From an uncultured Candidatus Saccharibacteria bacterium (lineage in GTDB: Bacteria > Patescibacteriota > Saccharimonadia > Saccharimonadales > UBA7683): DNA of 64,000 nucleotides. The DNA is taken from NCBI GenBank assembly GCA_964632215.1, contig CAZWBG010000001.1:313336-377335 (forward strand), read 5' to 3'. A program made the position numbers and the translations under genes. The first letter of the stretch is position 1. Each line of letters starts with the position of its first letter. Of the stretch, positions 738 to 60,739 are shown piece by piece. The notes under the pieces are model-generated. The model saw only the letters and a list, made by a program, of their open reading frames with translations. It was not told where the DNA came from and did not search any database.

Positions 738-1240
738 GTCTTAATCCACCTCGTTATCGTGTTCCAACTCGATCTAATCGGATTTAGCCTACGACGGCAG
801 TCTTTTGCGTGCTTTTGTGATATATCTAAAGTATCGATGCGCCTACCTTTCGGGACTGGGTCGGATGAGTACCTCAGGGGTTCCGCCCATGCGTCACGAA
901 ACATCTGTTCCGTGTGCGTTCGAAAATTTTTCACAGCATACCGATAACTCACACCCATCCAATAGCTATCAACCTCCAGAATAGCTTGGTGATTAGACAT
1001 TTCAGTCTGGTTTTGGTGCATCAACGCGACCAACTCCAGTTTACGATCCTTATCGTCTTTAGGACGGCGGAGAATCATGTAGTAGAGTTCTTCTCTATCC
1101 GAGATAAGAGTTAAACCTTTCGAGTATAAGCTTCTTCTTTCATCCCTTCGCTTTGTATAATAACTGTAAATTACGCCAGCCAATGATGATCCAACTAATG
1201 CTGTCGCGAGTGATAGTAAAATAGTCTCTAGACTCGTCAT
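734..1240 (-). CDS. small membrane-anchored protein (single N-terminal TM helix), unknown function
   Basis: 168-aa ORF with hydrophobic N-terminus ILLSLATALVGSSLAGVIYSYY followed by KRRDERR. It has 4-nt overlaps with hsdS upstream and the NTase downstream, which suggests translational coupling. Confidence 0.55.
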   Translation of the reverse strand: MTSLETILLSLATALVGSSLAGVIYSYYTKRRDERRSLYSKGLTLISDREELYYMILRRPKDDKDRKLELVALMHQNQTEMSNHQAILEVDSYWMGVSYRYAVKNFRTHTEQMFRDAWAEPLRYSSDPVPKGRRIDTLDISQKHAKDCRRRLNPIRSSWNTITRWIKT

Positions 1241-2325
1241 ACAAACATCCTCTGCAAAAGCGCTTTTTTGAATTCCTTCGCGCTGGCTAGTTTGGCTTCT
1301 TCTAGTTTGATTTTGTCATCTAATGCGGATAGGAAGTCGGCGATTTTTTGCTGTTCTTCGTCTGACTGCACGGGTACTTTAAAATCTTGTAATGTTGAAA
1401 GTTTAATATAGGGCATCGAGCCTTGTTGTTTTTGTGACTCCGCAAAAGTCTGAAACGCCTCTTTCAGATAGATGAATAAATATTTTGCTGGAATCTTAAA
1501 ATCTTGCAGCACGTAAGTTCGCTGGTATGCTTCGAATTTTCCCTTGTAATACGTGCAAAGTCCCACTTCACCGTTACCCGCAATCATAATAGCTTCGCCA
1601 TCAAAGCTATATTCATCGCTATATGTATGTTCGCGGGCGCACGTAAAGAACGGATACTCTCCTTTTGGATTGCCTTGATTTACATCTTTCTTGCCTGTTT
1701 TTATCATAACAATATCTGCAAGCTCTTTCTCTTCCCAGTCAGGATACTGATTGCCATTTGCGTCCTTGAAGCGAAGCTTGCCAGAAAATAGCGCTTGCAT
1801 GACGCCTTTTTTGTACTCATGCATAGCAGCCACCTTGGTTTGGATAGAAGTCAATTTGCTGTCTACCCCCACCATGTAATCTGCAATTTTTTGCTGTTCA
1901 ACTTCACCAGGGACGCCAACTTTAATTTTCTCTATTGTTGATTTTGACAAACTCGGCACACCAGAAGCCTCATTCCATTTTTGCCAATTAATTTTCTGAA
2001 AAATTGCGTATAAAAACTCTGGCACTGAGTCTTTATAGCCACGCGTATAAAACAATGTATCGACTGTCCAGAACTTACCGGTTAAGAACTGGGGCTTATC
2101 AATTGTACCTTTACGGCCTATACCGATGCTTTTACCATCATAAAGATAGTCATTCACATACAGCATCAAGCCACCCGTGCCATAAACAGGTACTTCACCC
2201 TTGTTGAGATGCTTATAATCCCGACCACTACCAATCTCTAACATGTCACCAAGTTTTTTAATTTGCCATCCATCAGTAAATTGCGGAAAGCGAAGTTCTG
2301 GCTCTCTTTTAGGTATCAGGCTCAT
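1237..2325 (-). CDS. hsdS: type I restriction-modification specificity subunit HsdS
   Basis: 362 aa with two target-recognition halves. Each half ends in the conserved HsdS helix (QQKIADYMVGVDSKL...KKGVMQALF and QQKIADFLSALDDKIKLEE...KKALLQRMF). Confidence 0.85.
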   Translation of the reverse strand: MSLIPKREPELRFPQFTDGWQIKKLGDMLEIGSGRDYKHLNKGEVPVYGTGGLMLYVNDYLYDGKSIGIGRKGTIDKPQFLTGKFWTVDTLFYTRGYKDSVPEFLYAIFQKINWQKWNEASGVPSLSKSTIEKIKVGVPGEVEQQKIADYMVGVDSKLTSIQTKVAAMHEYKKGVMQALFSGKLRFKDANGNQYPDWEEKELADIVMIKTGKKDVNQGNPKGEYPFFTCAREHTYSDEYSFDGEAIMIAGNGEVGLCTYYKGKFEAYQRTYVLQDFKIPAKYLFIYLKEAFQTFAESQKQQGSMPYIKLSTLQDFKVPVQSDEEQQKIADFLSALDDKIKLEEAKLASAKEFKKALLQRMFV

Positions 2326-2993
2326 GTCGTGAATTCCTTCAATGTAGAGATCGTGTCGTCTAATATGAAGTTGTAAAACTCGTTAATTCTTATATTCGTA
2401 GGTATATATTTGCAGCCGGATACTCTCGACTCAACAAACTCCATTTTTTTGATGGTCAATCGAGGCACACTTACTGATAAGTCGAGCGCGTCATGCTTTC
2501 TATTATTCCATTCTTTAACAATCAAACTACTCCTGACTCTACCATTGTACTGTGGATTTTTACTCAAATAGGACTTAAGATTTCTAGAGGCACTACCACC
2601 TTGAGTAAAGGCAAGTATGAACCTGAGTGCTTCATATAGCTCTGCAGTGTCATTGATTACGTTATTCACACTTCGTCTCAGTGACATATTGCTCTGACTA
2701 ATCATATTATTATCGTAATATACTTCTTGCGTAAATCTATCTTCATATGCCTTAAGATGTAGCTCTTTTAGAATTTCTTTGTATATATCACCTGCGCTAG
2801 ATAAGGCTATTTCAACTTTACGAACCTTATAGTGTAAGGAGGTCACTTCCTGATAGTACTTATGACTTTTATCCAACGACCTAGGCACTAGTCTACTTGC
2901 ATAGTACGGCAGCCTTACTAGCACGCTATGGTTAATCGTAACAGCAAGAGAACGAACGGATTCTTTCTTACTTATTTTTGCGGAAATATCCAT
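2322..2993 (-). CDS. hypothetical protein embedded in the type I R-M operon
   Basis: 223-aa ORF, 4-nt overlap with hsdS. I recognise no motif. Confidence 0.5.
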   Translation of the reverse strand: MDISAKISKKESVRSLAVTINHSVLVRLPYYASRLVPRSLDKSHKYYQEVTSLHYKVRKVEIALSSAGDIYKEILKELHLKAYEDRFTQEVYYDNNMISQSNMSLRRSVNNVINDTAELYEALRFILAFTQGGSASRNLKSYLSKNPQYNGRVRSSLIVKEWNNRKHDALDLSVSVPRLTIKKMEFVESRVSGCKYIPTNIRINEFYNFILDDTISTLKEFTT

Positions 2994-3011
2994 AACCTCA
3001 AAACGGCAAGT

Positions 3012-3848
3012 CTATGCCGAGTCCTTTCGTATTACTTCATCCATAGTTTTACCGTTGGCATTTTTCCAGGTTGTCCAGGCGTTTATGTTACCGCCTACAC
3101 AGAATCCTCCAGCATGGTTAGGACTTTTGAAAGTAATGTTCTCGGTAAGCTCATAGTTATTATCTTCTCTCTGTTGAGCCTTTTCGGCCAGTAAAGATCG
3201 GCGCTCAGCTGAGGCGCTGGGATATCTGACAGGAAATAGCGGGCGTTCAGTACCATCAATAACGGAGCCAGCGAGTACCACAAACCGAGAACCCCTAAAC
3301 TGCGCCTTGGCGTCTGTTTTCCTAGTTTTACAGTACCAGACATCGCTTACATCGTCTTGTTTAGTTGAAAATAGACTGAAACCTAACGACTGAGCAATAA
3401 GTGCGATGTCTTCCAGAATCATCTGCAAGCTGTGGAGTTTGAATTCATGAATGTTGTTACGAGATGGAACAGTTTTATTGAGCACCTCCATAGCTGCGGT
3501 TGCTTTCGCCTTTTCTACTGCCAAAGATTCAAGATATTTAATATCACTTTTTTCGAGACTATTGGTAGTAGAGACTATTGCAACAGCCGTATCCCAGAAG
3601 TCTTTATTCTGGTCGTGATTCTTTACACGGTCATAAAAATTTTCTGCTTCGCCAATATAGACTTGGTTCTCGCCAGAATTAATAAGTAAGTATAGAGACG
3701 GTTGTCTTATCCTACTTTCATCCTTGATGTCGTTGAGTTTAATCCTCGGTACCACAAAAGCCTTAACTGCGCTTTCAGAAACCTCAATAATCCGTACCCC
3801 CTCAAGAGTGGCATCAGGCAGATACATTTGAATTAATCTAGGCATCAT
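3012..3848 (-). CDS. GIY-YIG-like nuclease family protein with DUF4357-like C-terminus
   Basis: N-terminal LYLLINSGENQVYIGEAENFYDRVKNHDQNKDFW is GIY-YIG-like. C-terminal FKSPNHAGGFCVGGNINAWTTWKNANGKT matches my memory of DUF4357. I moved the start to ATG 3848, which has AAAGGAA upstream. Confidence 0.6.
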   Translation of the reverse strand: MMPRLIQMYLPDATLEGVRIIEVSESAVKAFVVPRIKLNDIKDESRIRQPSLYLLINSGENQVYIGEAENFYDRVKNHDQNKDFWDTAVAIVSTTNSLEKSDIKYLESLAVEKAKATAAMEVLNKTVPSRNNIHEFKLHSLQMILEDIALIAQSLGFSLFSTKQDDVSDVWYCKTRKTDAKAQFRGSRFVVLAGSVIDGTERPLFPVRYPSASAERRSLLAEKAQQREDNNYELTENITFKSPNHAGGFCVGGNINAWTTWKNANGKTMDEVIRKDSA

Positions 3849-4689
3849 GCATTCCTTTTTCTTCGAGTTTCTTCTGCTGCTCTTCTTGCTCAATGAATGA
3901 TTTATACTGCCGTGTAGCAGCATCTATGAGCGCCTGTACACGTTTCTCTTTTGTTTTGCCCTCACTAATAAAGTGTGCATTCAGGTTTTCAAGATTTGCC
4001 AGGATTACCAATTGCTGGATAGTTGCGTAGTCACGCTGGTTCTTGCCACTCTTGGCAAGCCTTGGGCTTGCTTGGCGCCATTCGGCAGCCGTTTGCCCAA
4101 AGACAATTTTGTTAAGTATATCGGCTTCGTCAGTGTAGACAAAGATTTGCTTTGACTTAGTGATGTTTAACGCTGGCAGTAAATCATTCTTAATAGAATC
4201 AGTGTGTAAACGATAGTTAACGCGTGACAAGTAACGGTGTGAGTCCCATTCAATAATATGCTGTTCTTGAGCCTTGAGTCGCTGGAACTCAACGATAATC
4301 AACAGCTTAAACTCTGGGCTCAGCCAAGTACCGAACTCGAAGGCAATATCTCTATGCGCATAGGTACCACCATACCGTCCAGCCTTGGCAATAATTCCTT
4401 TGGCGTTTACAGATTTTATCCACTGCTTCGCAGACAAGGTAAACCGATTCAATCCGGCTTGGTTTTTAATTCCCTCGAATTCGAGGGAATTAAAGCTAGG
4501 GTTATTTAATTGTTCCCAAACACCAAGAAACTCAAGTGTGTTTTTGTTACGCAGCCAATTGTCTATAACTCTGTCTGCACCGTAAGTTTTTGCCATGTCT
4601 GTTAAATAGATATAATCTTCGCCGTTTATCTTGGCGACATTAATTGCGCCACCATTTACATCCATAGATAAGTTGTTAACTGGCGTCAT
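3838..4689 (-). CDS. KilA-N domain-containing protein
   Basis: Contains YIYLTDMAKTYG...GGTYAHRDIAFEFGTWLSPEFKLLII, typical of KilA-N/ORF6N DNA-binding proteins, which are often found between hsdM and hsdS. Confidence 0.7.
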   Translation of the reverse strand: MTPVNNLSMDVNGGAINVAKINGEDYIYLTDMAKTYGADRVIDNWLRNKNTLEFLGVWEQLNNPSFNSLEFEGIKNQAGLNRFTLSAKQWIKSVNAKGIIAKAGRYGGTYAHRDIAFEFGTWLSPEFKLLIIVEFQRLKAQEQHIIEWDSHRYLSRVNYRLHTDSIKNDLLPALNITKSKQIFVYTDEADILNKIVFGQTAAEWRQASPRLAKSGKNQRDYATIQQLVILANLENLNAHFISEGKTKEKRVQALIDAATRQYKSFIEQEEQQKKLEEKGMHDA

Positions 4690-6254
4690 CTTACATCTCC
4701 AAATGGTGACTCTATACCCAACTCATCGGTATACTTCTTGATCTGAGCGTCGAGTTTAGTGGAATCTTTGTCAATCTTGCGGATTTGAGCCACCACTTCG
4801 TCAAGGTCAATTTCTTCCTCTTCTTCGAACGTATCTACGTAGCGTGGGATATTGAGGTTATAGTCATTCTCAGCTATCTCTGCAAGCTTTGCCGCGTAAC
4901 TATACTTGTCTTCTGTTTTTCTTTCTTGATACGTTGTAATGATTTTATCGATATCTTCAGGACGCAGATGATTCTGATTTTTACCTTTTTCAAAATACTT
5001 ACTTGCATCAATGAAGAGGACATCTTCGGGATGTGTTCGACATTTTTTAAAGACCAGGATACTAGCCGGAATTGATGTACCGAAAAAGAGATTAGCCGGC
5101 AAGCCGATAACTGCATCAAGATAATTTTTCTGCTCAATTAAGAATTTACGAATATGACCTTCGGCTGCACCGCGAAAGAGTACACCATGCGGCATAACTA
5201 CTGCCATGGTGCCATTCTCATCAAGTTGGTAGATCATATGCTGAATGAAAGCATAGTCCGCTTTACTTGCTGGTGCTAGCTTTCCATACTGCGCAAAACG
5301 ATCATCGCTTAGGTGGATTGGGTTGGCTGACCAGTTGGCGCTAAAAGGAGGATTCGCCACTATGGCTTCAAAGCGAAACTCTGCGTGTTGTGGGTGCTCT
5401 AGTGTATCTTCTTGTTTGATATCAAAATCGCTGTAGTGTACATCATGTAAGATCATGTTCATACGGGCTAGGTTGTAAGTGGTGTTATTCAGCTCTTGTC
5501 CGAAGAAACGATCCACATGGCTAACATACTTTGCCACACGCAGTAAAAGTGAACCTGACCCACATGTTGGGTCATACACGTTCTTAAGTTCTTTCTTGCC
5601 TGCCGTGACCAATCGAGCGAGAATTTGTGAAACTTCTTGTGGAGTGTAAAATTCACCAGCTTTTTTACCCGCACCGCTCGCAAACTGCCCGATGAGATAC
5701 TCATATGCATCTCCCAGAACATCGATCTGGGAGTTCTCTAGCTGAAAGTCAATCTTATCCAAATGTAATAGAACTTTGGAGATGAGCTCATTACGAGCGC
5801 TAACCGTTTTACCAAGTCTACTGGCGTTCAGATCAAGCTCTGAGAAGAGCTTATCAAAGTCTTCCTCGCTATCTGTGCCCATCGTGCTAGATTCAATGCT
5901 ATTTAGAATTCTCTCAAGGTCTTCGTTCAAGTCTTCATTAGTTGCACTATGTAGTGCTACGTAGTGGAATAGCTCGTTGGGCTTCAGGAAATAACCAAGT
6001 TTATCTAGTGCTGCTTTTCTAACTTCTTCAATATACACATCAGCGTTCTGTAGGTTATCATTAATTCCTTCATAGGTGATATTATCGGCTTCTAGTAGTT
6101 CGTTCGCGTAGAGTTCAATCTTCTCAGAAAGATATTTATAAAAAATAAAACCCAAGATATAATCCCGGAATTCATCAGGATTCATCTTACCTCGAAGCTC
6201 ATTAGCAATATTCCAGAGCTGAGTTTGTAATTGTTTCTTTTGATCTTCTGACAT
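4686..6254 (-). CDS. hsdM: type I R-M N6-adenine DNA methyltransferase HsdM
   Basis: 522 aa with an HsdM N-terminal domain, AdoMet motif VYDPTCGSGSLL and catalytic NPPF (IVANPPFSANW). Confidence 0.9.
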   Translation of the reverse strand: MSEDQKKQLQTQLWNIANELRGKMNPDEFRDYILGFIFYKYLSEKIELYANELLEADNITYEGINDNLQNADVYIEEVRKAALDKLGYFLKPNELFHYVALHSATNEDLNEDLERILNSIESSTMGTDSEEDFDKLFSELDLNASRLGKTVSARNELISKVLLHLDKIDFQLENSQIDVLGDAYEYLIGQFASGAGKKAGEFYTPQEVSQILARLVTAGKKELKNVYDPTCGSGSLLLRVAKYVSHVDRFFGQELNNTTYNLARMNMILHDVHYSDFDIKQEDTLEHPQHAEFRFEAIVANPPFSANWSANPIHLSDDRFAQYGKLAPASKADYAFIQHMIYQLDENGTMAVVMPHGVLFRGAAEGHIRKFLIEQKNYLDAVIGLPANLFFGTSIPASILVFKKCRTHPEDVLFIDASKYFEKGKNQNHLRPEDIDKIITTYQERKTEDKYSYAAKLAEIAENDYNLNIPRYVDTFEEEEEIDLDEVVAQIRKIDKDSTKLDAQIKKYTDELGIESPFGDVR

Positions 6255-15898: not shown

Positions 15899-16729
15899 TT
15901 AATTTTTTAGCGGAAGCTTTTGCTCAGCTAATCGGAAGGTTGCTATAGCAACTGGCATACCCAGTCCGAAGAGGGCAATAAGCGCCATAGCCTGCTGTAA
16001 TTCTGTCGGGTTGGTAGTTGTTTCTTTAATCACGATAGAAAAAGCATTAGCGGCCATATATACAATCGGTAGCGCCAGAAAAGCTTTGGTAGGCTTTTGA
16101 ATATAGTCTTTGTCTTTTGAACCATAATGTAGATATACCGAGATGATGCAGTAGAAAGTTAGAGTTGTGAGAAACCAGCCTATAAAATTATGGAACGGTA
16201 CGCCGAAATAGACGCCACCCGTTTCCCAGGTCCACCGCTGTTGCACATAGGAGGTAATCGGGTCGAATGCCATATCCCACATTGTCATAAATAAGGCCGC
16301 CAAGATTGGTACACCCAGCAACATCCAACCTTGTAACTTTTTGTACTGCGCCAAAATAATACGCGCCAATACGTAAGATATATATCCCATAGAAACGTAG
16401 CTAAATGTCACCAATGGTGGTACGCCACCTATTAGAAAACCATTAATCTCAGGGTTTGTATTGTAAAAATAATGCCCAAATATCTTGCCTGTATGTACAC
16501 CTATTACCTCTGCTGTAAATGAGGTGAGCATAATAATAGCAAAAATAATCAGTGTGTGCTTTTTACCGAAGAACATAAAGCTATGTAGCAAAGCAAAAGT
16601 GAACGGCAGCAAGAAGATGACAAATGATAAGCCTGGATTTTTAACAATATAGATGTTGGTTATAGCAATAATTATTAAGATAACCCAACAGATGAGTGTC
16701 ATAGGTGAGCTTTTTTTGATTTTTTTCAT
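15899..16729 (-). CDS. polytopic membrane protein (DUF422 / carotenoid-biosynthesis-like)
   Basis: 276 aa, 7-8 TM. GKIFGHYFY...GGVPPLV and FGVPFHNFIGWF resemble that family from memory. Confidence 0.45.
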   Translation of the reverse strand: MKKIKKSSPMTLICWVILIIIAITNIYIVKNPGLSFVIFLLPFTFALLHSFMFFGKKHTLIIFAIIMLTSFTAEVIGVHTGKIFGHYFYNTNPEINGFLIGGVPPLVTFSYVSMGYISYVLARIILAQYKKLQGWMLLGVPILAALFMTMWDMAFDPITSYVQQRWTWETGGVYFGVPFHNFIGWFLTTLTFYCIISVYLHYGSKDKDYIQKPTKAFLALPIVYMAANAFSIVIKETTTNPTELQQAMALIALFGLGMPVAIATFRLAEQKLPLKN

Positions 16730-17042
16730 AAAGTTCCCTTGAAAATTATTAAATGATGCTTATGGCAATAAGTGTAGCATATTTATCTACGCGTCTATTC
16801 ACCGTCTTGTAAATTCGTCTGTAGTAAACCTCTACATATAGTGCTTACGCTACCTATGGCACACCACCCCTAGTACATGTTGATAGAAAGTTAAAAAAGT
16901 AATAAAAAACTCTTTACAAACTGCTTATATGGTTGCTAGTATGGTGACAAGCTCAGGGAAACAAAAATCTAAAATAAAAAAGATCTTCCCACGGTGAGCG
17001 TTCCATCACCACAACAACTTATTATATTTAAAAGACGATCCC

Positions 17043-17067
17043 CAAGGGTCGTCTTTTATCTTCCCTG
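17043..17067. terminator. bidirectional intrinsic terminator downstream of trmD
   Basis: AGACGATCC-ccaa-GGGTCGTCT flanked by an A-run and a T-run. Confidence 0.65.
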
Positions 17068-17091
17068 AAGTTCAATCAGTATTTTATAAGT

Positions 17092-17733
17092 TTATTTATT
17101 TTCTTGGCGCCACTTAGCAATTTCGCTGTGGTTACCGCCCAATAACGTTTCGGGTACCTGCATACCGCGGAACTCTGCTGGCCGAGTATAATGCGGTGCT
17201 TCAACTGTTTCATCATCTTCTACAAAGCTTTCTATCTCAGCACTGGTTTCACCACCCAGAACTCCAGGCAACAACCGCACAACGCTATCTGCAATTATCA
17301 ACGCCGCCAGCTCACCACCAGTTAGTACGTAATGACCAATGCAGATCTGCTCGTCTACCACACTCATAATTCGCTCGTCGTAGCCCTCGTAGCGCCCACA
17401 AATGATTATGAGCCCGTGATCCGCCTTTGCATATCTATCGGCTACAGACTGCCTCCAGAGCGTGCCGCGTGGTGTTGCAAGCATCACTTTGGCGGTTGGA
17501 TCTTGAGATTTAGCATGCCCAACTGCTTTTATAAGCGGCTCCACCATCAAAACCATGCCGTCTCCCCCGCCGTAAGGTGTGTCATCTACTTGCTGGCGCG
17601 GACCAAGGCCAAAATCACGTAGTTGAATGATCGCAAACTCTGCTGCTTTAATATCTTGGGCTTTGTAAAGCATTGAGCTATTTAGGTAGCCCTCTACCAT
17701 TTCTGGAAATAATGTAATAATCTGTATTTTCAT
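17092..17733 (-). CDS. trmD: tRNA (guanine37-N1)-methyltransferase
   Basis: Contains ITLFPEM...DDTPYGGGDGMV...ICGRYEGYDER...YVLTGGE. Confidence 0.9.
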   Translation of the reverse strand: MKIQIITLFPEMVEGYLNSSMLYKAQDIKAAEFAIIQLRDFGLGPRQQVDDTPYGGGDGMVLMVEPLIKAVGHAKSQDPTAKVMLATPRGTLWRQSVADRYAKADHGLIIICGRYEGYDERIMSVVDEQICIGHYVLTGGELAALIIADSVVRLLPGVLGGETSAEIESFVEDDETVEAPHYTRPAEFRGMQVPETLLGGNHSEIAKWRQENK

Positions 17734-17755
17734 CTTATATACAGTGTAGCTTGTA

Positions 17756-17784
17756 TTGACATTTTTTACAATATCTGCTATAAT
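17756..17784 (+). promoter_or_regulatory. consensus sigma70 promoter TTGACA-17-TATAAT (cassette A)
   Basis: Exact consensus hexamers with a 17-nt spacer, divergent from trmD. Confidence 0.7.
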
Positions 17785-17788
17785 CCCA

Positions 17789-17863
17789 TTAATCTTTTGG
17801 AGTTTTCAGGAGATAGCACCGTGTGCGGAAATATAAGTACGCACCAAACAACCAGGAGAAGAT
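17789..17863 (+). promoter_or_regulatory. conserved 5' leader RNA, copy 1
   Basis: 17789-17852 is 64/64 identical to 18467-18530. It contains the hairpin GUGCG-N12-CGCAC and three GGAG-type boxes. Confidence 0.6.
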
Positions 17864-18262
17864 ATGTTGGATACAGTCACGGAGTCCATCGATCTCGCTG
17901 AAGTCACCCCGGAACAGGAAGTACGAATCAGTATTGATGACAAGCACGCCTTATTGTTTCGTATCGACCCCCCTTCCATCTTCGATGAAAGCTATGTTTT
18001 CGGTATTGAGATCTCACGTCTCAAGCTGATCATGGGTGCATCCGAAGGTCACGTCGGTGGCCAATTCATCGACCTCAATGAGGTCAATATGGATGACATA
18101 ATCGAGGTAGTGGGGTTCATCGTTCCGCCAAGTCCCCATACCAGTGTGCAGCGCAACCTGGAGATCGGAAGAAGCTTCTATATCACGGGCGTTGGCTACG
18201 AGTACCTTCGACAAGAGACGCGCGGAACCATCACCTCCATCGAGGTATATGAAAGGTTTTAG
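17864..18262 (+). CDS. small hypothetical protein, cassette A (paralog of 18542-18955)
   Basis: 132 aa with AGGAGAAG as RBS. Shares IEV..IVP.S..T.V...L..G......ITG.GY......G.I.SIEV with cassette B. Confidence 0.6.
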   Translation: MLDTVTESIDLAEVTPEQEVRISIDDKHALLFRIDPPSIFDESYVFGIEISRLKLIMGASEGHVGGQFIDLNEVNMDDIIEVVGFIVPPSPHTSVQRNLEIGRSFYITGVGYEYLRQETRGTITSIEVYERF

Positions 18263-18291
18263 ACTTCCTGTATACCTTTTCACCCTGGTTG

Positions 18292-18344
18292 GGGCAGTTG
18301 TATCTAAGTAGCACATTTGGTGCTAACAAACGATATGACTGCCC
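18292..18344 (+). other. 13-bp-stem bipartite hairpin preceding hammerhead 1
   Basis: GGGCAGUUGUAUC pairs with GAUAUGACUGCCC, enclosing the inner hairpin UAGCAC-AUUUG-GUGCUA. It covaries with copy 2. Confidence 0.7.
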
Positions 18345-18347
18345 AAA

Positions 18348-18402
18348 ATCACTTCAGTAATTGTGTAATTACTCTGATGAGTTCAAAAGAACGAAAAGTG
18401 AT
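18348..18402 (+). ncRNA. type III hammerhead ribozyme, copy 1
   Basis: AUCACUU C AGUAAUU-GUGU-AAUUACU CUGAUGA GUUC-AAAA-GAAC GAA AAGUGAU. All invariant core positions are present (C3-A9, G12-A14, A15.1-U16.1, C17, G10.1-C11.1). Predicted cleavage is between 18355 and 18356. Confidence 0.85.
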
Positions 18403-18432
18403 GTAAATGATTGATATGGTTTTCGGGTTATA

Positions 18433-18461
18433 TTGACTTATCTTGTAATATCTGCTATAAT
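18433..18461 (+). promoter_or_regulatory. sigma70 promoter TTGACT-17-TATAAT (cassette B)
   Basis: Starts 31 nt after hammerhead 1. There is no terminator between them. Confidence 0.65.
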
Positions 18462-18466
18462 TTAGC

Positions 18467-18541
18467 TTAATCTTTTGGAGTTTTCAGGAGATAGCACCGT
18501 GTGCGGAAATATAAGTACGCACCAAACAACTAGGAGAAATT
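18467..18541 (+). promoter_or_regulatory. conserved 5' leader RNA, copy 2
   Basis: Identical to copy 1 over 64 nt. Confidence 0.6.
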
Positions 18542-18955
18542 ATGCTGGCAACGCAGCAGGCTGTTGATCTTTCGACCTGCAACACGGATCAAGTTATACG
18601 TGTCGTATTCAGTGACAAAGACGGGTTCGGGTCCATCTTCGACTTGAGACTTAAGACACAAGACGACTCGTTCACCGTCAGCGATGACTACCTTACGGGG
18701 GTAGAAATTGCGGTTATTACGACCACCTTCGAAAGCATCGACCCTAAACCAGGTGGCCGCCACCTCAAGAGCAATGAAACCACACGCATGATCGAGGTCA
18801 CAGAGCTCATCGTTCCTGCGAGTGCCTACACCAACGTGTGTCGGCATCTAACAGTTGGTAACTCCTCTCTACCACTCATTACTGGCATAGGATACCTCAG
18901 GCTTGCAGACGAGATCCACGGATCCATTAAGAGCATTGAAGTCAGAGCAGCCTGA
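18542..18955 (+). CDS. small hypothetical protein, cassette B
   Basis: 137 aa. A diverged paralog of cassette A, at roughly one third identity by eye. Confidence 0.6.
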   Translation: MLATQQAVDLSTCNTDQVIRVVFSDKDGFGSIFDLRLKTQDDSFTVSDDYLTGVEIAVITTTFESIDPKPGGRHLKSNETTRMIEVTELIVPASAYTNVCRHLTVGNSSLPLITGIGYLRLADEIHGSIKSIEVRAA

Positions 18956-18980
18956 ACGCTCACAACATATCTCCTGGTCG

Positions 18981-19033
18981 GGGCAACCATGTCTAAACAG
19001 TACATTCGGTACTCGTAAACGATGTGGTTGCCC
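18981..19033 (+). other. 13-bp-stem bipartite hairpin preceding hammerhead 2
   Basis: GGGCAACCAUGUC pairs with GAUGUGGUUGCCC, enclosing the inner hairpin AGUAC-AUUCG-GUACU. Changes relative to copy 1 are compensatory. Confidence 0.7.
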
Positions 19034-19036
19034 AAA

Positions 19037-19091
19037 ATCACTTCAGTAATTGTGTAATTACTCTGATGAGTTCAAAAGAACGAAAAGTGAT
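19037..19091 (+). ncRNA. type III hammerhead ribozyme, copy 2
   Basis: Sequence identical to copy 1. Predicted cleavage is between 19044 and 19045. Confidence 0.85.
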
Positions 19092-19118
19092 GTGAGCACA
19101 AATTAGATAGAAACTAAA

Positions 19119-19145
19119 AGAACCCCGTAAGTGCAGGGTTCTTTT
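19119..19145. terminator. bidirectional intrinsic terminator (cassette B converging on the KH gene)
   Basis: AGAACCC-cgtaagtgca-GGGTTCT flanked by AAAA and TTTT. Confidence 0.6.
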
Positions 19146-19239
19146 ATCACATATAAAGCTCTCTAGTTTTCCTAGACTCGCAAGCGAGCTTTGGTTTTGT
19201 CATGTGTTTATTTTTGTTTGTCCGTGGTGAACATAAGAA

Positions 19240-19671
19240 TTATATATCAAGATCATCGAGGTCCGCAAGCTCTTTTCGAGTCTTTTCGGTTAGATTCTCT
19301 TCCTCGTTTTCCACAGTCTCATCTTGAAACTCCTCCACAGGCTTGTCATCAGTACTATCATCTGATGTAGTATCATCATCTTGAGCTACCGAATGGATAG
19401 GTGTAGTGGCACCACTGCCGCCATCACTATCAACAATCTTGAGGTTATAGCGAGCATCATTCTTTGTACCAAGCGCTCGTAGCAATGTGCGAATGCTCTG
19501 CGCCGTACCACCGCGCTTACCAATAACTCGGCCGAGATCGTCAGGAGCTACGGTAAGTGCCAAAAGTACACCTTTCTCATCAATAGTACGTTCGACAGAA
19601 ACTTCATCAGGGTTACTGACAAGAGCTTTTACTACAAATTCTACAAATTGCTGGTCAATGCTTGCTGACAT
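19240..19671 (-). CDS. KH-domain RNA-binding protein (KhpA/YlqC-like) with an acidic C-terminal tail
   Basis: Contains LGRVIGKRGGTAQSIRTLL, the GxxG KH motif. It sits directly downstream of rpsP, the conserved position. Confidence 0.8.
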   Translation of the reverse strand: MSASIDQQFVEFVVKALVSNPDEVSVERTIDEKGVLLALTVAPDDLGRVIGKRGGTAQSIRTLLRALGTKNDARYNLKIVDSDGGSGATTPIHSVAQDDDTTSDDSTDDKPVEEFQDETVENEEENLTEKTRKELADLDDLDI

Positions 19672-19772
19672 AAGGTCTCCTCTGTTAGATAACTTCTCAA
19701 TCTAGTGTAGCATAAAAATAAAAGCTGCCGAAAGATATACTCGGCAGCTCTACTATATTATGAAGTTCAGAT

Positions 19773-20282
19773 CTATTTCTTTGATTCTTTTTCTTCAGCT
19801 TCAGGCTTCTCTTCTGAAACTTCTTCTGTCTCTGGCTTAACTTCTGCCTCAGGAGCAACAACCTCTGCCGCAGGAGATTCGGCTACTTTAGCTGGAGTTT
19901 CTTCAACCACAACTTCTGTCACAACCTCAGCTGGAGTCTCGGCAACCTCTTCAACTACCTCTTCCTTGGGAATGTTTCGTCGAAGTTTTTCAGCATGCTT
20001 GATAGTCTTAGTCTTATCGGTTGCAGTCTTCTTAACCCAACCTGGTAGAGTAACTTTTTCTGATTCAAAAACACGTACCACACGGTCAGATGGTTGAGCG
20101 CCATGTGTTAGGTAATATTCAGCTTTTTCTTTATCAAGTGTGACTGCTTTAGTGTGCGGATCAAAACTACCTAAATTAGCTACTACACGGCCGCTGGTAG
20201 GCTGACGGTGAGATTCTTGTACGATTACTCGATATTGGGCGAGACCTTTACGGCCAACTCTTTGCATACGAATTGCTAACAT
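19773..20282 (-). CDS. rpsP: 30S ribosomal protein S16 (bS16) with an acidic C-terminal extension
   Basis: Begins MLAIRMQRVGRKGLAQYRVIV. Confidence 0.9.
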   Translation of the reverse strand: MLAIRMQRVGRKGLAQYRVIVQESHRQPTSGRVVANLGSFDPHTKAVTLDKEKAEYYLTHGAQPSDRVVRVFESEKVTLPGWVKKTATDKTKTIKHAEKLRRNIPKEEVVEEVAETPAEVVTEVVVEETPAKVAESPAAEVVAPEAEVKPETEEVSEEKPEAEEKESKK

Positions 20283-20334
20283 CTAAAAATTACTTCCCTT
20301 CGACAATATGAATTTAATAAAACAATCTTGAGTA

Positions 20335-20363
20335 ATTATACAGATGATGACCCCTAAAGTCAA
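20335..20363 (-). promoter_or_regulatory. sigma70 promoter TTGACT-17-TATAAT for rpsP
   Basis: Read on the minus strand. It starts 17 nt downstream of hammerhead 3. Confidence 0.6.
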
Positions 20364-20380
20364 CTGAGGTACACTACTTT

Positions 20381-20435
20381 GTCACTTTTCGCGTTTTTAC
20401 GCTCGTCAGAGTAACCGCACAGTTACTGAAGTGAC
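20381..20435 (-). ncRNA. type III hammerhead ribozyme, copy 3
   Basis: Minus strand: GUCACUU C AGUAACU-GUGC-GGUUACU CUGACGA GCGU-AAAA-ACGC GAA AAGUGAC. The core is intact (N7 = C is allowed). All three stems carry compensatory changes relative to copies 1 and 2. Cleavage falls after the C complementary to 20428. Confidence 0.8.
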
Positions 20436-20437
20436 AC

Positions 20438-20524
20438 GGGTTAGCGGAGAAAAAGATAATAGGGAGAGTCAGTATGAGCTGACATCGAATCCATATTATA
20501 GAACTTTTTCTACGACGCTACCCC
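20438..20524 (-). other. long imperfect GGG...CCC hairpin preceding hammerhead 3
   Basis: GGGGUAGCG pairs with CGCUAACCC, AGAAAAAG with CUUUUUCU, and AUAAUA with UAUUAU. CCUGG lies just upstream. Confidence 0.5.
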
Positions 20525-20587
20525 ATGACCTGGAATCTCCAGGGTTTTACTCGAGTTTAACGCTTCGAGCACGCGTAACGCCCTTAT

Positions 20588-20941
20588 CTAGGAGACTGTC
20601 TTGCTGTTGAGAATGATCTCTCGGACGACACCAGTTCTCCCATTGTTGATAAAAATGATACCGCCCACTCGGAATATCCGAGAGATAACGTTATGTTTAG
20701 GATATCGAGTGACAACACCATGTATGTCAGTGTCCGTCTGAATGGCAACACCGTTGATATTATCCCGAGCAATTTTCGGCTCCTTCACCGTGATGAAGTG
20801 CCAAGTTGAATTTTCCGTACACACGGTGACAACGTCACCGGGGTCAGTACTAGCGAAATCGAGTTCGACTTGACGTATACCATCTCGAACACGATTGTCC
20901 GAGAACCTTGCTACTCCGGATATCCCGCTATGTTCATCCAT
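20588..20941 (-). CDS. small hypothetical protein, cassette C
   Basis: 117 aa with GGAGAT as RBS. Only weak C-terminal resemblance to cassettes A and B. Confidence 0.55.
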   Translation of the reverse strand: MDEHSGISGVARFSDNRVRDGIRQVELDFASTDPGDVVTVCTENSTWHFITVKEPKIARDNINGVAIQTDTDIHGVVTRYPKHNVISRIFRVGGIIFINNGRTGVVREIILNSKTVS

Positions 20942-21019
20942 TGGATCTCCTGTCCAATAGTTATCTGTCAGCGTTTCTAACAGATATAAACATTCGCCGA
21001 ATGCGAATGTTCAATATAA

Positions 21020-21048
21020 ATAATACAATTTAAGTGTTATTGGGTCAA
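21020..21048 (-). promoter_or_regulatory. sigma70 promoter TTGACC-17-TATTAT (cassette C)
   Basis: Lies immediately after the rnc stop. Followed by a leader hairpin AACAUUCGC/GCGAAUGUU (20989-21011). Confidence 0.55.
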
Positions 21049-21049
21049 T

Positions 21050-21754
21050 TTATTTGGATTCGTAAAATTCAAGGGCTTCTTCGGCGGCTTTTTGTTGGGC
21101 AGCTTGTTTGCTGCTACCAGATCCTGAGCCTCGAAGCTGTGAGCCAATAAACACGCCAAGTGTAAAGATTTTGTCGTGATCAGGCCCGTCTTCAGAGAGC
21201 ACTTTGTACTGAGGCGTTTGATTGTCTTTCTCCTGCGCTACCTCTTGTAAGTAGCTCTTTGGGTCACGCCACGAGCCAGTTTCTAGAATTTGTGGCAAAG
21301 TAGCAATAATTTGAGCATCTATAAACAACTTGGCGTGGTCATAGCCTTTGTCTAGGTAAATAGCACCAACGACAGCCTCAAAACTATTGGCTAAAATCTG
21401 CTGACGGGCTCGATCGGTACCGCGTTTCTCTCCGCGGCTTAAACGGAGCATACTCTCGAAGTTCAATCTGGTAGCTGCCGCACCAATGCTCTCAGTTCGC
21501 ACTAAAGCACTGCGCCAGTTAGTTAAAATTCCCTCTGGCTCGGTGTAGGTTTTATACAAAAATTCGGTTACTACCAACTCCAGCACAGCATCACCAAGAA
21601 ACTCGAGACGCTCATTGTGTTCTTGAGCTGACTTTTTGTGTTCGTTAATGTAGCTACGATGCGTAAAAGCCTGCATTAACAGAGCGGGGTCTTCGAAGGT
21701 AAAGCCAAAATTGGCCTGGGCAAAGTCTTGGTAAGGTTGCGTATTAAGGTTCAT
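21050..21754 (-). CDS. rnc: ribonuclease III
   Basis: Contains NERLEFLGDAVLELV (the RNase III signature) and a C-terminal dsRBD. Confidence 0.9.
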   Translation of the reverse strand: MNLNTQPYQDFAQANFGFTFEDPALLMQAFTHRSYINEHKKSAQEHNERLEFLGDAVLELVVTEFLYKTYTEPEGILTNWRSALVRTESIGAAATRLNFESMLRLSRGEKRGTDRARQQILANSFEAVVGAIYLDKGYDHAKLFIDAQIIATLPQILETGSWRDPKSYLQEVAQEKDNQTPQYKVLSEDGPDHDKIFTLGVFIGSQLRGSGSGSSKQAAQQKAAEEALEFYESK

Positions 21755-21829
21755 GGTGTGTAGGTTTTTGGTTATCGACTATGGAACTCTTGCAACTTCA
21801 ATACTCGATAACCGAAAATCTCTCCTTTC

Positions 21830-60020: not shown

Positions 60021-60096
60021 GGCTCTTTAGCTCAGTTGGTAGAGCAGAGGCTTGAAGAGCCTTGTGTCCCCAGTTCAAGTCTGGGAGGAGCCACCA
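60021..60096 (+). tRNA. tRNA-Phe(GAA)
   Basis: Cloverleaf with anticodon loop TTGAAGA. Followed by the terminator AAACCCGGA/TCCGGGTTT at 60101-60127. Confidence 0.85.
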
Positions 60097-60283
60097 CAAT
60101 AAACCCGGAATCCGGGTTTTTATTTTTGCAATCAAAAAAGGTTTGAATGGAGTCCCGTTTGGCATACCTAAAGTATCTTATTCAAACCCGAGCCTGAAGC
60201 GAGATATTTAATCTGTAAAACTATCCCGTTACCCTAGAAATACCTCCGTATATGTGCTATTATCATCTGGTACTTTTAGACAC

Positions 60284-60360
60284 GGGCGCTTAGCTCAGTT
60301 GGCTAGAGCATCTCGTTTACACCGAGAGGGTCGGGGGTTCGAGTCCCTCAGCGCCCACCA
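60284..60360 (+). tRNA. tRNA-Val(TAC)
   Basis: Acceptor GGGCGCT/AGCGCCC, anticodon loop TTTACAC. Confidence 0.85.
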
Positions 60361-60507
60361 CTAAATGTAGTTACCTCAGCATTTTAGTAGAAGTACCAAT
60401 TCAACAAACAAAACGTAGTGACTTTGTTGGATTGAGAGGAGACATTATGAAGAGTGTAGGCTTTTAGTCTTTAGACTAAAACTGAAACTTGAAATAAATG
60501 TCGACGA

Positions 60508-60595
60508 GCGCGAGTGGCGGAATTGGTAGACGCGTCAGCTTGAGGGGCTGGTGCCCGCTTAGGGCGTGGAGGTTCAAGTCCTCTCTCGCGCACCA
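60508..60595 (+). tRNA. tRNA-Leu(GAG), long variable arm
   Basis: Acceptor GCGCGAG/CTCGCGC, anticodon loop TTGAGGG. Confidence 0.85.
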
Positions 60596-60661
60596 CATAG
60601 ATATATTAACAACTCGAAGAAGTGCAGACCGAGAATGAACTTCGGAGATAAGCACCTATAT

Positions 60662-60739
60662 GGCGGATGTAGCTCAGTTGGTTAGAGCGCCGGGTTGTGG
60701 TTCCGGAGGTCGTGGGTTCAATCCCCATCATTCGCCCCA
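60662..60739 (+). tRNA. tRNA-His(GTG) with encoded G-1
   Basis: Anticodon loop TTGTGGT. An extra 5' G sits opposite discriminator C. Followed by the terminator AAGACCTC-ttcg-GAGGTCTT at 60756-60778. Confidence 0.85.

Follow-up and report, generated by a model that had tools for sequence, protein, structure and literature searches.

Predicted type III hammerhead ribozymes stand behind long hairpins at the 3' ends of small-protein cassettes in a Saccharibacteria chromosome

We describe three predicted self-cleaving RNAs of the type III hammerhead class in the chromosome of an uncultured Candidatus Saccharibacteria bacterium (GenBank assembly GCA_964632215.1, contig CAZWBG010000001.1), each of which closes a cassette built around a single small open reading frame (ORF). 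The window, by which we mean the whole 64,000-nucleotide (nt) stretch that was analyzed (positions 313,336 to 377,335 of the contig), carries all three hammerheads within 2.1 kb, each past one small ORF, and the parts of a unit follow one another in a fixed order: a near-consensus promoter, a structured 5' untranslated region (5'UTR), a small orphan ORF, a long hairpin, and the hammerhead. Judged by sequence and predicted structure, the three motifs are genuine type III hammerheads, and covariation among relatives places them in a real hammerhead subfamily that is common in Patescibacteria and Saccharibacteria genomes and in uncultured phage contigs, and that sits beneath the Rfam cut-off. We think it probable that self-cleavage trims the cassette mRNA just past a protective hairpin and releases the read-through RNA, hairpin and ribozyme together serving as a 3'-end-forming and insulating module.

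A preliminary description of this DNA, made from its letters, had placed two identical and complete type III hammerheads on the plus strand at 18348-18402 and 19037-19091, and both were confirmed letter by letter, 689 nt apart. Hammerhead 1 is 55 nt long and reads AUCACUU-C-AGUAAUU-GUGU-AAUUACU-CUGAUGA-GUUC-AAAA-GAAC-GAA-AAGUGAU, starting with the 5' strand of stem III (7 nt) and C17, continuing through stem I (7 bp, capped by a GUGU loop), CUGAUGA, stem II (4 bp, capped by AAAA), and GAA, and returning to stem III with its 3' strand. Every feature of sequence and secondary structure that defines the catalytic core and the type III topology is present, just as had been claimed. The core reads CUGAUGA...GAA in hammerheads 1 and 2 and CUGACGA...GAA in hammerhead 3, a minus-strand copy taken up below, position 7 being free; position 17 is C in all three, in agreement with the non-G cleavage site in the criteria of Perreault et al. 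(PMC3088659); and the pairs that flank the core (A15.1-U16.1, G10.1-C11.1, and A1.1-U2.1) are canonical, with no mispairs. When the 55-mer is folded in isolation, the three-helix hammerhead is both the minimum-energy and the centroid structure. The predicted cuts fall after C18355 in hammerhead 1 (18355/18356) and between 19044 and 19045 in hammerhead 2. Identity around the two copies runs for 65 nt (18340-18404 equals 19029-19093), and the 23-mer CTGATGAGTTCAAAAGAACGAAA, which spans the core and stem II, occurs at two sites in the window versus none in 100 shuffles. The Rfam model RF00008 (Hammerhead_3), run in E-value mode with permissive filters, matched hammerhead 2 from end to end (42.8 bits, E = 1.3e-7 in a 1.6-kb search) and the identical first copy just as a partial local match (18354-18396, 29.1 bits), a gap in score that we put down to the search filters.

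An exact scan for CTGATGAGTTCAAAAGAACGAAA returned 21 loci in species-representative genomes, 17 of them labelled Saccharibacteria, Patescibacteria, or another candidate-phyla lineage, and 65 uncultured viral contigs. Of 88 checkable occurrences, 85 place the word within a complete type III hammerhead. Stem I measures 7 bp in 83 of these, with 58 distinct stem I sequences; stem III varies from 3 to 9 bp, with 42 distinct sequences; and position 17 is C in 72, A in 14, U in 2, and G in none. Across 76 distinct relatives, stem I is 99.2% paired and shows double-sided changes at six of its seven pairs, and the inner four pairs of stem III are 97 to 100% paired, three of them covarying and A15.1-U16.1 being invariant. 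The covariation score of these 76 sequences is 0.697, versus 0.177 when shuffled and at most 0.127 when the partners are slid. A covariance model built from the 76-sequence alignment, which we call R1, gave 151 matches in 88 sources and scored 72.5 bits on each of hammerheads 1 and 2. In about 55 distinct R1 members that lack the seed word, stem II covaries as well (e.g., GUCC/GGAC, GCCC/GGGC, GACC/GGUC, GCGU/ACGC, and UUCC/GGAU) and the A-rich tetraloop is retained. All three stems are thus backed by covariation in some 150 relatives, which supports the identification of the motif as a hammerhead. The signature of the subfamily is a stem I of 7 bp, looped by GUGU or GAGU, and a stem II of 4 bp, capped by the tetraloop AAAA, GAAA, or AAGA; the sequences of loop 1 and of the A-rich loop 2 are conserved, the latter even where stem II differs, a pattern compatible with a loop-loop contact of the kind that speeds cleavage at physiological Mg2+. 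None of about 45 subfamily members in 16 loci (a subset of L005-L082) reaches the RF00008 gathering score, and the hammerheads of this subfamily are probably unannotated in public candidate-phyla genomes. Among GenBank phages we found no carrier; Pelagibacter phage HTVC109P was set aside as a candidate, its matches being weak (19 and 15 bits) and devoid of stem II.

The R1 model also recovered a third hammerhead, which the preliminary description had overlooked, at 20435-20381 on the minus strand (50.6 bits, E = 3e-13); its sequence is absent from the training set of the model. Hammerhead 3 reads GUCACUUC, then the predicted cut, then AGUAACU-GUGC-GGUUACU-CUGACGA-GCGU-AAAA-ACGC-GAA-AAGUGAC, and its minimum-energy fold is the hammerhead. 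The cut is predicted after C20428 (20428/20427 on the minus strand). Relative to hammerheads 1 and 2 it carries compensatory changes in stem III (A-U to G-C), in stem I (U-A to C-G), and throughout stem II, and it differs at the free position 7 as well. The two identical plus-strand units described earlier are real, as stated, and the total for the locus is three, the third being encoded on the opposite strand.

A stable hairpin straight before the ribozyme is general in the subfamily. The 70 nt upstream of 114 distinct hammerheads fold with a mean free energy of -20.1 kcal/mol (mean z of -2.8), compared with -7.6 kcal/mol for the 70 nt downstream and -11.5 kcal/mol for hammerhead-free, co-directional intergenic regions of the same loci. 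The gap between hairpin and stem III is 0 nt in 63 of 117 cases and no more than 3 nt in 93 of them, and stem III length is weakly correlated with hairpin distance (rho of 0.19, p of 0.045). The ORFs upstream of the ribozymes are diverse: 109 sequences fall into 59 clusters, and their median length is 132 amino acids (aa). In viral contigs the ribozyme lies a median of 32 nt past a stop codon and 30 nt before the next start, and promoters occur in 2 of 78 cases; in genome loci the gaps around it are longer, and a promoter-like site that matches at least 10 of 12 consensus positions lies within 110 nt downstream of 8 of 31 hammerheads, versus none of 31 in an upstream control stretch. Twenty-seven of the viral loci (L023-L087; e.g., L023:13310-13338 and L062:8503-8530) together hold about 136 occurrences of a palindromic hairpin, GUGUCU-N4-6-AGACAC, of which 36 abut a hammerhead. 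The motif has the look of a hairpin that those phages use generally between genes, with hammerheads added in some places.

In the window the same arrangement can be followed part by part. The four best sigma-70-like sites in 17000-21800 belong to the three cassettes and to rpsP. Promoter A (17756-17784, plus strand; TTGACA-17-TATAAT) matches the consensus at 12 of 12 positions and has a copy 677 nt downstream, namely promoter B (18433-18461, plus strand; TTGACT-17-TATAAT, 11 of 12), which begins 31 nt past hammerhead 1; both carry an extended -10 TG. The rpsP promoter (20363-20335, minus strand; TTGACT-17-TATAAT, 11 of 12) begins 18 nt past hammerhead 3. Cassette C has a candidate promoter just after the RNase III gene (21048-21020, minus strand; TTGACC-17-TATTAT, 10 of 12), for which the evidence is weaker, a terminator-like hairpin (21013-20987) coming straight after it. 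With their transcription starts inferred, the 5'UTRs extend over 17791-17863 in cassette A (hairpins at 17792-17814 and 17821-17842, AGGAG Shine-Dalgarno sequence at 17854-17858) and over 18468-18541 in cassette B (hairpins at 18470-18492 and 18499-18520), both on the plus strand. They are identical over 64 nt (17789-17852 in cassette A), each comprising a 5'-terminal hairpin of 10 bp and a second hairpin.

ORF A (17864-18262, plus strand, 132 aa) and ORF B (18542-18955, plus strand, 137 aa) are orphan paralogues that share 32% amino acid identity (E = 3e-17) and 55% nucleotide identity. Their stop codons precede the hammerheads by 85 and 81 nt, respectively, in line with the distance of about 85 nt reported previously. 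ORF C (20941-20588, minus strand, 117 aa) is unrelated to them (hhalign probability of 0.4), and a word-indexed homologue search returned ORF C alone. Neither Pfam, PHROG, PADLOC, nor NCBIfam holds a match for any of the three proteins, and a PDB profile search was likewise empty. Word-indexed searches with the cassette proteins returned the queries themselves, and a metagenome scan for relatives found none; a HMMER profile search of 1.84 billion representatives yielded one true relative of ORFs A and B, the protein P0003 (E = 6.6e-11), a second candidate, P0004, being rejected as a low-complexity false match. AlphaFold runs on the cassette proteins gave pLDDT values of 44 and 46.

Between each ORF and its ribozyme lies a long hairpin in the 3' untranslated region (3'UTR). 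Hairpin A (18292-18344, plus strand), a 13-bp stem around a 6-bp inner hairpin, ends 3 nt (AAA) before hammerhead 1; hairpin B (18981-19033, plus strand) likewise ends 3 nt before hammerhead 2; and hairpin C (20526-20436, minus strand), 91 nt long and imperfect, adjoins hammerhead 3. Hairpins A and B differ in sequence and share the same pairing. None of the three has the makings of an intrinsic terminator, each being followed by AAA or GU and then the hammerhead, with no U tract. The sole terminator-like site that belongs to the cassettes is a 13-pair hairpin at 19115-19146, past hammerhead 2, which is common to cassette B on the plus strand and to the convergent khpA-rpsP unit on the minus strand; its T tract lies on the minus strand, and A and T runs flank the same hairpin on the plus strand.

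The genomic setting is one of housekeeping genes. The minus-strand block comprises nusB, a NUDIX gene, rnc, ORF C, rpsP, the gene for a KhpA-type KH protein (khpA), and, further on, trmD; cassettes A and B lie on the plus strand between the KH gene and trmD. With trmD, khpA, rpsP, rnc, NUDIX, and nusB as neighbours, this is not a prophage neighbourhood; no phage gene or integrase was found among the window proteins scanned, and the cassette ORFs have no significant PHROG matches. Protein P0003, the relative of ORFs A and B, is encoded in a second genome (GCA_964397855.1, locus L022), where it lies divergently beside trmD and upstream of the same KH-rpsP-rnc-NUDIX-nusB block. This synteny and the taxonomy of the related loci likewise point to Saccharibacteria as the host. 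Window and L022 are 73% identical in TrmD, 70% identical in ribosomal protein S16, and only about 35% identical in the cassette protein. The L022 cassette retains a TTGACT-17-TATAAT promoter, both 5'UTR hairpins with a different sequence, a 14-bp long hairpin, and a hammerhead (L022:5477-5531) in which position 17 is A, stem II contains a U-G pair, and stems I and III carry compensatory changes; the stem of the long hairpin, too, has changed in compensatory fashion between A, B, and L022. This is the single hammerhead in the 10.4 kb of the L022 locus, which has no cassette between rnc and rpsP. Because L022 keeps its hammerhead while the cassette protein has diverged to about 35% identity, the ribozyme is a conserved part of the unit. 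The proposal that the hammerheads act as the 3' module of promoter-bearing cassettes thus holds in silico, since the promoters score at the top of the region and the orthologous cassette keeps the same parts.

These data bear directly on whether the motifs might be inactive relics, or selfish repeats, without a role in cassette expression. The motifs do lie within short, perfectly repeated segments, and their Rfam score is below threshold. Against this, the core is intact in all three copies and in the orthologue, the differences between copies are compensatory, the structure is conserved across about 150 relatives, and the motif has been retained in synteny while the adjacent ORF diverged to about 35% identity. 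We give the relic explanation hardly any credence.

How the preferred 3'-end module would work can be laid out in a few steps. Once the 55-nt motif had been transcribed, the RNA, nascent or complete, would cut itself past C17 (18355, 19044, and, on the minus strand, 20428). The upstream product would be the cassette mRNA, ending in the long hairpin and an 8- to 11-nt tail with a 2',3'-cyclic phosphate, and such a hairpin-ended mRNA would resemble a terminator-type 3' end that resists 3' exonucleases. The downstream product would start with a 5'-OH and carry the body of the ribozyme. Read-through RNA would thereby be uncoupled from the cassette mRNA, whether it led into the next cassette, into the rpsP unit, or into the antisense of the convergent khpA. 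Near-consensus promoters start 31 nt downstream of hammerhead 1 and 18 nt downstream of hammerhead 3, and this ties the ribozyme to the unit upstream. In two of the three instances of the ORF A/B family, hammerhead 2 of the window and the hammerhead of L022, only convergent genes follow, and because no co-directional gene comes next there, the ribozyme again belongs to the upstream unit.

Several observations weigh against this interpretation or temper it. The test proposed earlier, a search with the Rfam covariance models, gave a significant match to RF00008, and its 42.8 bits nevertheless fall short of the 48.5-bit gathering cut-off, so that routine annotation overlooks hammerheads 1 and 2. 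At gathering thresholds, Rfam reports ten tRNAs in the window and no hammerhead, and the Rfam search had no match at hammerhead 3. The gathering score is a curation threshold, not a biochemical feature. The window sequence was itself among the 76 on which R1 was trained. The promoters are consensus matches only. A good intrinsic terminator stands 25 nt past hammerhead 2, where a 3' end with a hairpin could form without the ribozyme, and for this reason terminator replacement alone is insufficient as an explanation. Finally, folds of whole 3'UTRs predict other pairings that rival stem III or the GAA core, and constitutive cleavage is therefore not assured.

The last point invites the thought that the ribozymes are conditional switches, in which alternative 3'UTR pairings or a bound factor would decide whether the ribozyme folds and would thereby tune expression of the small ORF. 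In minimum-energy folds of the full 3'UTR, upstream sequence captures GAA and the stem III 3' strand in cassette A and the stem II region in cassette C, at the expense of the active junction, and the complete identity of hammerheads 1 and 2 and of the 5'UTRs, despite 55% identity between the ORFs, could reflect a sequence-specific factor. The competing pairings, however, are conserved neither among the three window cassettes nor in L022, the motif folds correctly in isolation, and there is neither an aptamer-like conserved domain nor a match to any Rfam riboswitch, all of which makes a switch very unlikely.

Other alternative pairings were noted in the untranslated regions themselves. At its 5' end the 5'UTR reads UCUUUUGG, which can form the 5'-terminal hairpin with nearby CAGGAGAU (window 17792-17859 and 18470-18536) or, alternatively, pair with the true Shine-Dalgarno region CCAGGAGA; the 5'UTR of L022 (L022:4923-4995) follows the same logic with another sequence. 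This could be a translational switch or merely a stabilizing 5' hairpin. Just 5' of the long hairpin there is a conserved CCUGGYYG (window 18284-18291 and 18973-18980; L022:5411-5418). Its complement, CAACCAGG or CAGCCAG, lies at the Shine-Dalgarno region of its own cassette; L022 shows one compensatory change, and cassette B has a mismatch. The pairing of CCUGGYYG with CAACCAGG is suggestive in cassette A and L022; we do not rely on a 5'UTR-3'UTR interaction, since a duplex test over the whole length was significant for cassette A alone (0 of 200 shuffles, versus 15 of 200 for cassette B and 12 of 200 for L022).

The chief rival to the 3'-end module is that the ribozymes serve the gene downstream, a structured leader with a 5'-OH insulating the next mRNA or altering its stability. 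RiboJ is a synthetic ribozyme insulator, of which this would be the natural counterpart. Nearly the entire type III ribozyme remains on the 3' product, viral hammerheads sit in short gaps between co-directional ORFs with few promoters (2 of 78), and several Patescibacteria loci have a co-directional housekeeping gene 26 to 70 nt past the ribozyme. Yet in the window near-consensus promoters intervene between hammerhead 1 and ORF B and between hammerhead 3 and rpsP, and because they sit past the ribozymes, the main downstream transcripts would be without one. Hammerhead 2 and the L022 hammerhead lack a co-directional downstream gene altogether, and strong structure lies upstream of the ribozyme, not downstream. 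A service to the downstream gene consequently strikes us as unlikely, though it deserves more weight than the other alternatives.

The tandem arrangement raises another prospect, in which hammerheads 1 and 2 would excise the 689-nt unit 18356-19044 and its ends would be joined, by the ribozyme or by an RtcB-type ligase, into a translatable circular RNA akin to those of retrozymes and viroids. Identical tandem hammerheads 689 nt apart are what such a process would use, and the 3' end of the excised unit would find a perfect partner in the stem III strand retained at its 5' end. Related loci can hold three or four hammerheads within a few kilobases, those on the same strand 300 to 1,100 nt apart. 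Perreault et al. themselves raised circular products as a possibility, then sought circular or spliced products and found none (PMC3088659). The L022 cassette has one hammerhead in 10.4 kb, and a conserved role therefore cannot require two; hammerhead 3 is solitary on its strand; and the promoter of cassette B lies inside the 689-nt unit. Folded as a circle, the unit does not form a rod (median pair span of 27 nt, only 17% of pairs in one diagonal band), and no RtcB was seen among the window proteins scanned. Circularization, although chemically feasible, is accordingly most improbable. An Obelisk or viroid-like identity was rejected, the element being DNA encoded and its fold not rod-like.

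Some further features of these loci deserve record. Two of the related loci contain 65-nt stretches (L010:5922-5986, plus strand, and L006:7276-7340, minus strand) that exceed the tmRNA gathering cut-off (60 to 66 bits versus 47 bits) and that represent the tRNA-like domain only, GGGGAUGAUAGGUAUCGAC...GGACUGGGGUUCAAAUCCCCACACCUCCACCA, without the mRNA-like part; both belong to arrays of small genes punctuated by hammerheads and are found 17 nt past one of these ribozymes, and ARAGORN made no call on either stretch. Logan contigs L088-L092, from independent short-read assemblies of the same strain (SRR16797976-81), break at 17818 and 19064, 30 nt into the perfect repeats. This is the expected behaviour of a k=31 graph, which confirms the repeats at the DNA level and is uninformative on RNA ends. 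Elsewhere the window is ordinary chromosome, with type I restriction-modification, BipA, MgsA, alanine racemase, a Mur ligase, and LigA. The S and M subunit genes of the restriction-modification system occupy 1237-6254 (minus strand), and the ten tRNA genes include a cluster at 60021-60736. Ribosomal protein S16 (19773-20282, minus strand) ends in an acidic C-terminal tail of about 60 aa, rich in E, V, and P, that the L022 orthologue lacks (169 versus 133 aa). A membrane protein gene (15899-16729, minus strand) has subthreshold NCBIfam matches to CruF-type carotenoid hydratase families, and its Logan-contig counterpart is listed under Pfam Caroten_synth, a surprise for a genome reduced to about 0.69 Mb.

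It is tempting to generalize from this locus to a protein-independent module of hairpin plus type III hammerhead that forms and insulates 3' ends, is widespread in Patescibacteria and their phages, and in this genome rides on independently promoted, fast-evolving small-protein cassettes spread among housekeeping operons. We regard this broader proposition as tentative, with the odds somewhat against it. If it is true, the hairpin-hammerhead module would be the ribozyme counterpart of RNase III sites or terminator hairpins, and bacterial hammerheads would have a defined role, a question that reviews still leave open (PMC6765202). The locus offers a compact case: one housekeeping region of this genome, about 0.69 Mb in size, holds three ribozymes, each with a long hairpin on one side and a promoter, terminator, or convergent gene on the other, and an orthologous cassette is available for comparison. 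The order of hairpin and then ribozyme amounts to a concrete, falsifiable hypothesis on hairpin-protected 3' ends, and a single exact-word scan was enough to expose a large subfamily beneath the curated threshold of Rfam. Cultivable and genetically tractable Saccharibacteria exist (PMC10633639).

The window motifs share with the type III family RF00008 (clan CL00010) the core C3-U4-G5-A6-N7-G8-A9 and G12-A13-A14, the A15.1-U16.1 pair, a non-G position 17, and an open stem III. The seed of RF00008 consists mostly of viroid, satellite, and plant sequences, whereas the present subfamily is DNA encoded in bacteria and phages. The context of the ribozymes had been called unusual, and that claim was overstated: hammerheads clustered around single genes or short blocks were reported from bacterial prophage DNA in 2011 (PMC3088659). 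Perreault et al. described hundreds of bacterial hammerheads, saw three tandem arrangements cleave in vitro, and proposed that longer transcripts are processed into gene-length mRNAs (PMC3088659). Although the chemistry of hammerhead catalysis is well understood, a 2019 review held the purpose of bacterial genomic hammerheads to be still undefined (PMC6765202). Their prophage clusters, such as the triple arrangement around ardA of Agrobacterium tumefaciens, resemble the window in having same-orientation hammerheads within about 2 kb, each after a small variable gene, and the three hammerheads within 2.1 kb that we describe, each following one small ORF, fit that pattern. They differ from it in that the window is a housekeeping setting (rnc, rpsP, khpA, and trmD) in an ultrasmall candidate-phyla host, each unit has a near-consensus promoter of its own, and a long hairpin precedes each ribozyme, an association of which we found no mention in PMC3088659; nor did our literature search find a relevant link between hammerheads and Saccharibacteria. 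What is new relative to 2011 is the candidate-phyla host, the non-prophage housekeeping setting, the individual promoters, and the association with a hairpin.

Two identical type III hammerheads arranged as direct repeats a few hundred nucleotides apart also occur in retrozymes and viroid-like circular RNAs (PMC7761336, PMC7229834). The window unit departs from these in that it encodes a 137-aa ORF and a promoter, folds with a median pair span of 27 nt instead of as a rod, and has an orthologue with a single ribozyme, all of which places it outside the retrozymes. A parallel to the proposed 3'-end module comes from the early mRNAs of phage T7, in which RNase III cuts intergenic hairpins, leaving a 3' hairpin on the upstream message and separating the cistrons. 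The processing that we propose for the window would likewise be intergenic, would part the cistrons, and would give the upstream mRNA a hairpin for its 3' end; unlike the T7 transcripts, the RNA would cut itself, beside the hairpin and not within it, and would leave 2',3'-cyclic phosphate and 5'-OH ends.

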